Origin: Vicinamibacterales bacterium
Lineage (GTDB): Bacteria > Acidobacteriota > Vicinamibacteria > Vicinamibacterales > 2-12-FULL-66-21
Assembly: GCA_035700625.1 (NCBI GenBank)
Contig: DASSOM010000190.1
Span: 1-48,184, forward strand
Length of the DNA stretch: 48,184 nucleotides
Reading direction: 5' to 3'
Shown: in pieces, positions 30,916 to 31,081 of the stretch
Layout of the letters: each line of letters begins with the position of its first letter
How positions within the stretch are numbered: the stretch's first letter is position 1
Translations under genes and position numbers: made by a program
Notes under the pieces: generated by a model
Databases searched by the model: none
Told to the model about the DNA's origin: nothing
Seen by the model: the letters and a program-made list of their open reading frames with translations, nothing else

Positions 30916-31081
30916 GCGGGATGCGGGATGCGGGATGCGGGATACGGGATACGGGATGCGGGATGTGGGATACGCGATCAGGGATCCGGGATAAGGATCA
31001 GGGATTCGAGGATCAGGGATGAGGGATTCGTGATCAGGGATTCAGGATCCAGGATCCGGGATCAGGGATTCGATCAGCGAT
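30916..31081 (+). repeat. Dispersed heptad-built element, copy A (about 24 units of NNGGGAT)
   Basis: Reads gcgggat x4, acgggat x2, gcgggat, gtgggat, acgcgat, cagggat, ccgggat ... cagggat gagggat tcgtgat cagggat ... cagcgat. It ends 12 nt before the ggt ATG. About 90 percent similar over long stretches to copies B and D. Confidence 0.9.

Follow-up and report, generated by a model that had tools for sequence, protein, structure and literature searches.

Heptamer repeats of the short tandemly repeated repetitive (STRR) type were reportedly first described by Mazel et al. in 1990. The window analyzed here, a 48,184-nt stretch of DNA from a Vicinamibacterales bacterium of the phylum Acidobacteriota (GenBank assembly GCA_035700625.1, contig DASSOM010000190.1), carries arrays of 7-nt GGGATNN units at three sites. 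Comparable arrays, with the units GGGAATC in Xanthomonas and GGGGA(C/T)T in Nostoc, were described by Rehm et al. 2015 (PMC4692102). The X. campestris genome holds 186 GGGAATC repeats with 70 inverted pairs; 89-93% of the Xanthomonas repeats are intergenic, at a mean distance of 28 nt from the 5' neighboring open reading frame (ORF) (PMC4692102). G-quadruplex (G4) formation by the GGGAATC repeats was shown by circular dichroism, no regulatory role was found, and their function was left unknown (PMC4692102).

A different kind of element is the intervening sequence (IVS) of 23S rRNA. That of Coxiella encodes the protein S23p and has terminal inverted repeats that form a 28-bp stem cut by RNase III (PMC4990558). 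IVSs sit in the loops of rRNA helices, their scattered distribution suggests insertion, and earlier authors proposed that they were once mobile with help from their own ORF (PMC4990558). Here we report that the GGGATNN arrays of the window belong to a dispersed family that elsewhere in the same genome brackets a gene for an IVS-type protein. The data establish that the family is real, that its copies are insertions, that its arms keep a fixed order and bracket a gene, and that units are gained and lost quickly. On balance, the arrays are probably three copies of a genome-specific dispersed family whose arms are the inverted-repeat shell of an IVS-type cassette.

A dispersed family with a collinear module

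The window corresponds to contig C190 in a 3.74-Mb metagenome-assembled genome (MAG; 68.5% G+C). Tandem Repeats Finder (TRF) returned period-7 arrays at 30917-31069 (21.9 copies) and 39271-39397 (18.1 copies), and further ones at 39956-40023 and 40045-40153. The units are of the type GGGATNN (GGGATTC, GGGATCA, GGGATGC and others), with GGGAT cores 7 nt apart, and on re-reading the sequence agreed with the description of heptad arrays given in an earlier note on this stretch. That note had counted four copies, but the window holds three loci, since one palindrome accounts for both 39942-40028 and 40034-40154, as its two arms.

Copy A (30916-31081, + strand; found by TRF, collinearity, core match and alignment) is a solo G-rich arm. 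It comprises an inner tail of ~8 GCGGGAT-type units (30916-30972), a conserved module at ~30973-31048 with a 31-nt core at 31011-31041, and a few extra outer units. Copy B (39271-39408, - strand; TRF, collinearity and core match) is also a solo arm, C-rich on the + strand, with its core at 39280-39310 and an (ATCCCGC)n tail toward 39397. Copies C and D make up a single palindrome with no gene and no assigned strand (39942-40154; collinearity and core match), in which the C-rich arm (39942-40028) is followed by the G-rich arm (40034-40154).

The earlier note proposed a dispersed family with a shared order of unit variants, a call to be dropped if a formal alignment showed chance sharing of the heptad only. 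For the collinearity control, one arm of each pair was cut into GAT-terminated units, which were shuffled 500 times and realigned. Local alignments of all six pairs among the four window arms scored z = 5.7-9.6 over the unit-shuffled controls, and 0-1 of 500 shuffles per arm pair reached the observed score. Because all six pairs exceed the shuffles, the call of a family with collinear order beyond the shared heptad stands, and chance sharing of the heptad is excluded for the module. The proposed genome-wide census, made with the 31-nt module core at up to 3 mismatches, matched 35 arms at ~27 loci on 20 contigs, while the reversed control pattern of the core gave no matches in the genome. The family reading was therefore supported, although incomplete, as it had missed the inverted pairs, the wide spread of GGGATNN arrays and the gene shell described below.

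Alignment of the arms with MAFFT revealed a module of ~85 nt in fixed register, in which one unit is of 6 nt and another of 8 nt, and which has a sharp outer end at GGGATTC(A/G). Inward of the module lies a variable heptad tract, often (GCGGGAT)n. The loci comprise 13 gene-less palindromes of 120-230 bp, always with the C-rich arm before the G-rich arm, about 12 solo arms, A and B included, many of which have a (GCGGGAT)n tail at the inner end, and one gene-bearing copy on contig C279. The loci are clustered, with ~10 pairs within 10 kb compared with ~2.4 expected by our own arithmetic on the locus coordinates.

In agreement with the intergenic placement claimed for the window copies, no locus of the census lies inside a called gene, the gene calls being rough and taken from a codon-usage gene caller trained on the host genome. 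The 24 loci that could be classified are convergent in 9 cases, tandem in 15 and divergent in none, against genome-wide spacer shares of 15.5%, 69% and 15.5%, respectively; copy A is the one divergent exception once a neighboring 31-codon ORF is counted. The annotated outer ends (n=38) lie within 30 nt of a stop codon in 21 cases and within 30 nt of a start codon in 6. The C-rich arm, which any gene reading into an element meets, offers a TGA in each of the three frames over a few units, and several genes, including 39551-39949 in the window, take their stop codon from the element.

Palindrome C/D is predicted to fold into a hairpin of 80 pairs at -130.4 kcal/mol. Twelve of the 13 palindromes give predicted stems of 70-90 pairs (-113 to -156 kcal/mol, depending on the strand), and the remaining short one on C33 gives 37-46 pairs (-45 to -56 kcal/mol). 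The 48-kb window has three canonical G4 motifs, all within A and B, that of copy A at 30918-30969. The G3N4 motif repeated at least four times is confined to the tails of A and B, and the module has no four closely spaced G-tracts; the (GCGGGAT)n tails may thus be able to form G-quadruplexes.

No copy of the exact module was detected in 40 relatives. It is represented by one 4-unit relic in 185,579 species genomes, and in metagenomes by 11 contigs, several of which have either a palindrome with the C-arm ahead of the G-arm or a solo arm with a tail of (CCGGGAT)n units. Simple arrays are far more widespread: of 201 genomes of the order, 56 (28%), from 13 of its 19 families, have at least five perfect GGGATNN units, as do 24 of the 301 genomes of a phylum sample, 19 of those outside the order. 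They are also present in the spacers of ribosomal-protein operons. With the full palindrome as query, BLAST returned hits for 32 of the 60 other genomes searched in the taxonomic family, including full-length palindromes whose unit order is specific to each lineage. Rfam gave no match over 30500-40500 at E up to 1.

The arrays resemble the Xanthomonas and Nostoc heptamers in having 7-nt tandem units that contain G3, lie between genes near ORF ends, vary in number and frequently form inverted pairs (13 palindromes here). As in Xanthomonas, they are rare between divergent genes (0/24 by gene calls). They differ in the unit, which is GGGATNN and not GGGAATC or GGGGA(C/T)T, in the phylum, and in the long collinear module that is shared beyond the unit alone. 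Moreover, G4 formation was shown for GGGAATC, whereas here a G3N4 sequence motif is what is present. The likeness to cyanobacterial STRRs drawn in the earlier note holds for the heptad features, and our literature search found no paper describing such repeats in Acidobacteria.

Two side observations concern the composition of the element and a match to its core. GATC density in 30916-31081 and 39942-40154 is 54-67 per kb against 11 per kb for the genome (~5-6x), and TGATCA and GGATCC palindromes recur at fixed positions of the module. A low-GC, eukaryote-like metagenome contig (Ga0115001_10089130, locus L016, ~1800-1860) has telomere-type CCCTAA repeats that directly adjoin a stretch of 24 nt matching the element core exactly (ATCCCTGATCACGAATCCCTGATC); by our own estimate, the chance expectation for core matches of this type is ~0.01.

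Insertion at the three window sites

Judged by sequence comparison, the copies at all three window sites are insertions, because related genera have short spacers or lack the element at each of these sites. Copy B has its outer end 2 nt past the stop codon of ORF 38774-39268. In a 70%-identical orthologous locus (L036) the element is absent and the stop codon runs directly into the sequence that follows B here. Copy B is flanked by a direct repeat, exact over 14 nt and imperfect to ~22 nt, of which the left copy (39247-39260, + strand) is the 3' end of ORF 38774-39268 and the right copy (39410-39423, + strand) is the duplicated target; L036 has the unduplicated, ancestral order. The flank-to-flank score of B (14) is higher than those of all 650 off-diagonal flank pairs (maximum 13). 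Homologues of the protein from ORF 38774-39268 are all 163-168 aa long, which shows that its stop codon is native and that the downstream repeat copy is the duplicate, and truncation of this ORF by B was rejected on the same grounds. A copy occupies this site in a 90%-identical ortholog (L035) as well; its inner units differ, and a 38-nt hairpin is added. Unit turnover is thus fast between near-identical loci, as also seen in the spacers beside the closest homologues of the C279 gene (see below). Contigs of the same species in Logan end ~34 nt into copy B in 10 of 10 cases.

Copy A lies in a divergent spacer between the 31-codon ORF 30760-30855 (- strand) and a gamma-glutamyltranspeptidase (GGT) gene. 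This spacer measures 105 nt in a related genome (G001; GGT 81% identical) against 238 nt here, of which 166 nt are copy A. The copy stands directly 5' of a GATAAT box, whose aligned counterpart in G001 is TATAAT; no consensus of a promoter or of a U-tract terminator was found at copy A. Palindrome C/D lies between the convergent genes 39551-39949 (+ strand) and 40161-41603 (- strand); it overlaps the last codons of the former and is 6 nt from the stop codon of the latter. Four other genera have a corresponding spacer of about 8-24 nt, and three other lineages have palindromes of other units in it (ATGGAAA, GGCTTTG and a GAGGCCACGGAG 12-mer). The copies had been said to abut start or stop codons within 2-15 nt, which is correct for B and palindrome C/D and only half correct for A: its outer end is 12 nt 5' of the GGT start codon (ATG at 31094), whereas the nearest gene on its other side is 60 nt away.

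PF05635 genes inside inverted repeat arms

The gene-bearing copy (C279:10553-11304) consists of a C-rich arm, a PF05635 gene and a G-rich arm. The C-rich arm (10553-10711) has its tail toward the gene and is followed after 15 nt by an ORF of 138 aa, the stop codon of which is 3 nt before the G-rich arm (11147-11304). The left arm is 89% identical to copy A of the window over 132 nt, tail included. The encoded protein matches PF05635, "23S rRNA-intervening sequence protein" at 53 bits (cut-off 33.8; E = 4.5e-14), as well as TIGR02436, "four helix bundle protein" (E = 2.9e-16); a sequence search of the PDB with it gave no match at E up to 0.01. The cassette is located 3' of hemB, a position that in other genera is empty or occupied by arrays with other motifs and no gene.

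All three PF05635 genes of the host genome are inside inverted arms of short period, with the arm motifs GGGATNN, GGAGGTC/GGATGTY and GGTTCCY. Gene-less copies exist for each motif, at ~50 loci for GGAGGTC/GGATGTY and at 2 for GGTTCCY. The GGAGGTC/GGATGTY family, which outnumbers the GGGAT family (its ~50 loci are on 36-38 contigs), forms the arms of the PF05635 cassette on C15 at 21866-21945 and 22626-22740. The paralogue on C15 is homologous to the XCC0516 protein of X. campestris (E = 8e-23). XCC0516 is the protein of PDB entry 2GSC, which is cited as Avd-like and as representative of the PF05635 structure, and its start codon is overlapped by repeat #15 of the supplement of Rehm et al. (PMC4692102). 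This single cross-phylum case is a hint that heptamer repeats and PF05635 are linked elsewhere.

The generality of the arrangement was evaluated in one taxonomic family, a few metagenome contigs and the one Xanthomonas case. All 31 sampled genomes of the taxonomic family have PF05635 genes, 2-8 each. Loci were scored by the best inverted repeat between the 450-nt flanks of the gene, with 244 genes of 95-175 aa from the host genome as controls. For 29 PF05635 loci from 29 genera the median score is 29.5, and 17 reach at least 25; for the controls (n=244) the median is 11.5, and 6 reach at least 25. The 95th percentile of the controls (15.0) is exceeded by 25 of the 29 PF05635 loci, compared with ~5% of the controls. 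The arms at the sampled loci consist of tandem 7-9-nt units of many motifs. Moreover, protein relatedness correlates with the 5-mer content of the arms (Spearman 0.22, permutation p = 0.005), and at 16 of 28 loci the top 3 ranks out of 27 include the arm of the closest protein relative. Among homologues of the C279 protein for which DNA is available, the nearest (61-64% identical) are encoded at a different genomic site, between genes for a MacB-type permease and an aldo-keto reductase, and even there they are preceded by an ATCCC arm and followed by a GGGAT arm. Two samples that encode one identical protein differ in the length of the upstream spacer (226 and 336 nt), and in one relative the downstream arm is reduced to 2 units.

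A second family of small genes shares this shell design, since GxxExxY genes (TIGR04256) are also found inside such arms. One (C33:11532-11966, E = 3e-32) is bracketed by inverted arms whose motif is that of a tandem array in the window (20880-21058; 31/62-nt units, GCCAAGG / GGGATCTCACGCCAAGG), and another (C336:17125-17613) is inside CACAGAA-type arms.

The C279 copy resembles the 23S rRNA IVSs of Coxiella burnetii and Leptospira in having a small four-helix-bundle ORF within terminal inverted repeats that can form a long stem. It differs from them in that the copies are between protein-coding genes and not in rRNA, that the arms are 80-160 nt of tandem heptads instead of a unique 28-bp stem, and that most copies, those of the window included, are gene-less. 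PF05635 is also of the same fold family as Avd, the accessory protein of diversity-generating retroelements (DGRs) (PMC10053308). In contrast to DGRs, the cassettes are a single gene in repeat arms, with no pair of template and variable repeats. No match to a reverse transcriptase (PF00078) was obtained in the host assembly, which is 78% complete, and membership in a DGR or partnership with a reverse transcriptase in the manner of Avd was rejected. The data suggest a link between heptamer-repeat palindromes and IVS-like cassettes that is apparently unpublished: the connection with a four-helix-bundle gene that is drawn here has no counterpart in PMC4692102, and our literature search found no published description of the architecture or of a link between heptamer repeats and an IVS gene.

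If the arms originated as the shell of an IVS-type cassette, the 13 palindromes would be its gene-less derivatives, which they look like because they keep the arm order of the cassette with nothing between the arms, and solo arms such as A and B would be half shells. Both may stem from the cassette or be copied by the same process, which would be of a copy-and-paste or gene-conversion type and not that of a classical transposase. By analogy with the 23S rRNA IVS, paired arms that are transcribed would form a stem of ~80-90 bp that could serve as a substrate of RNase III, the gene for which is present in the host genome. Such cutting would make insertion by stop codons and at operon junctions tolerable and could affect mRNA ends.

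Several observations weigh against this interpretation or limit it. The gene is present in 1 of ~27 loci, and a palindrome that was already in place could have received it. Solo arms appear to insert alone, which an origin as a cassette minus its gene does not explain. A flanking direct repeat was found at none of the loci apart from B (1/26). Since the copies average only 86% identity (maximum 95%), there is no evidence for recent movement; together with the lone 14-22 nt duplication at B and the insertion of solo arms, this argues against a recently active classical transposon. The pairing of the arms is without sign of selection, because partner arms of the same palindrome are no more alike (84.3%) than arms of different loci (85.8%), and because the predicted RNA folds of the 13 palindromes have no consistent G-U asymmetry between top and bottom strands; selection for arm pairing was rejected on this basis. 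The protein-arm correlation is modest and may be due to shared descent alone. All genome counts are lower bounds, the MAG being 78% complete and in 374 contigs.

Other explanations fare less well against these data. That the arrays are independent microsatellites, made in place by polymerase slippage on a favored G-rich heptamer, would agree with the abundance of simple GGGATNN arrays in the order and in the phylum sample, with the fast shifts of unit number between near-identical loci, and with the different units carried by orthologous spacers of different genera. It is extremely unlikely for the family as a whole, as a variant order that includes the 6-nt and 8-nt units is kept over ~85 nt in 35 arms, the alignment scores are far above the unit-shuffled controls, the outer boundary is sharp, and close genera are entirely without the module. 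Slippage accounts for the tails, not for the module. Spread as a repetitive extragenic palindromic (REP) element or REPIN by a RAYT/TIRYT tyrosine (HUH) transposase, or as a classical MITE (miniature inverted-repeat transposable element) by a DDE transposase, is very unlikely. Like REP/BIME/REPIN elements (PMC3733652, PMC3116915), the copies are extragenic palindromes that are more frequent downstream of genes and in convergent spacers, occur as inverted doublets and as a rule lack target duplication, and the genome encodes two Y1 (HUH) transposases (PF01797). These genes, on C274 and C68, are each bracketed by inverted clusters of GGGGTCAG-type repeats (C274, 100-260 and 1400-1560; C68, 4400-4540 and 5110-5220), which fit the GGGGWSAS motif of acidobacterial TIRYT genes (PMC3733652). 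A RAYT/TIRYT association was rejected, as both Y1 genes of this incomplete genome are flanked by repeats of that type only and by no GGGAT heptads. The REP/REPIN unit is a 20-40 bp palindrome with a GTAG or CGTC tag (PMC3733652), whereas the arms here are 80-160 nt long, have a 7-nt periodicity and have no such tag. Three loci have a member of a common paralogous protein family (~800 aa) nearby, the only recurrent neighbor of the copies, and no recurrent transposase was found near the copies. A strict MITE was likewise rejected: inverted arms are present, but a fixed-length target duplication is without support, the one case among 26 loci being atypically long (14-22 nt). So was a MITE parent, since the sole gene-bearing copy encodes a four-helix-bundle PF05635 protein and no transposase. 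The element is thus not an already catalogued REP or MITE, which the earlier note had named as the outcome that would remove its novelty.

Two further alternatives were weighed. The arrays may be host regulatory or structural DNA (G4, i-motif or cruciform) of the Xanthomonas GGGAATC type, with the IVS gene as a secondary association. The location of all three G4 motifs of the window in A and B is in line with this, and the bias toward stop codons and convergent spacers with near absence from divergent ones matches the observations of Rehm et al. 2015. On the other hand, four close G-tracts occur in the tails only and not in the conserved module, U-tract terminators and a promoter consensus are absent at A, and no regulatory role emerged from the work of Rehm et al. 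In other genera the orthologous sites are short or without the element, so that no conserved regulatory need is evident. We consider this alternative unlikely, and it concerns effect and not origin, so that it can coexist with the cassette origin. The other possibility is that palindromes came first and that their hairpin loops are homing targets for small selfish genes (four-helix-bundle, GxxExxY). Gene-less copies far outnumber gene-bearing ones, rRNA IVSs do sit in helix loops, two unrelated families of small genes are inside such arms in the host genome, and the resident gene 39551-39949 is bracketed by arms that were inserted separately. This order of events is nevertheless quite unlikely, because the arm motif tracks protein relatedness across genera, the same protein subfamily keeps its ATCCC/GGGAT arms at another site, and the three paralogues of one genome each have their own motif.

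The interpretation of the arms as the shell of an IVS-type cassette may be extended, tentatively and as a possibility that we hold at well below even confidence. PF05635/TIGR02436 genes, and perhaps GxxExxY (TIGR04256) genes, in inverted short-repeat arrays would be widespread, unrecognized selfish cassettes, of which the rRNA IVSs would be a special case that landed in rRNA. Gene-less arms would be the origin of the STRR, GGGAATC and acidobacterial heptamer families, and the protein would recognize its own repeat unit and promote the copying or maintenance of the arms. The heptamer families (STRR in 1990, GGGAATC in 2015), the origin of rRNA IVSs and the role of the IVS protein have been unexplained so far; if the link holds, both puzzles become testable, through binding of the protein to its own unit, cutting by RNase III and movement of the cassette. 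The elements also matter in practice. They break short-read assemblies (the ten same-species contigs ending in copy B), give stop codons to neighboring genes and occupy operon junctions, and thereby affect gene calling and assembly quality in dominant soil bacteria.

Neighboring genes and other repeats of the window

The resident gene 39551-39949 (+ strand), which encodes a secreted Tyr/Arg-rich protein of 132 aa, has copy B upstream and palindrome C/D downstream. It is therefore bracketed by arms of the family, with an inverted-repeat score of 80.5 and its stop codon inside palindrome C/D. Its orthologues in L036 and in four genera are without arms. A comparable case is present on C253 (6882-7960), where a 231-aa oxidoreductase-like gene is downstream of a C-rich arm of the family with a long (ATCCCGC)n tail. 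The array downstream of that gene is of (GCGGGGC)/(GCGGGAC) units and is without the conserved module. These are two ordinary genes bracketed by arms.

The 31-codon ORF beside copy A (30760-30855, - strand; MREWNFSSNADALVAILL...) is hydrophobic and below the usual ORF-length cut-offs. It is conserved beside the GGT orthologues in G001, G010 and G003, and is likely a real gene for a membrane micropeptide.

Another family of repeats, different from the GGGATNN family and REP-like, is present at 4166-4269 and 5761-5853, where tandem hairpin units of 37 nt and 29 nt (GTCAGGGC...GCCCTGAC) flank a gene. A similar GGGTCAGGGC hairpin is found near other small genes, for instance on C247.

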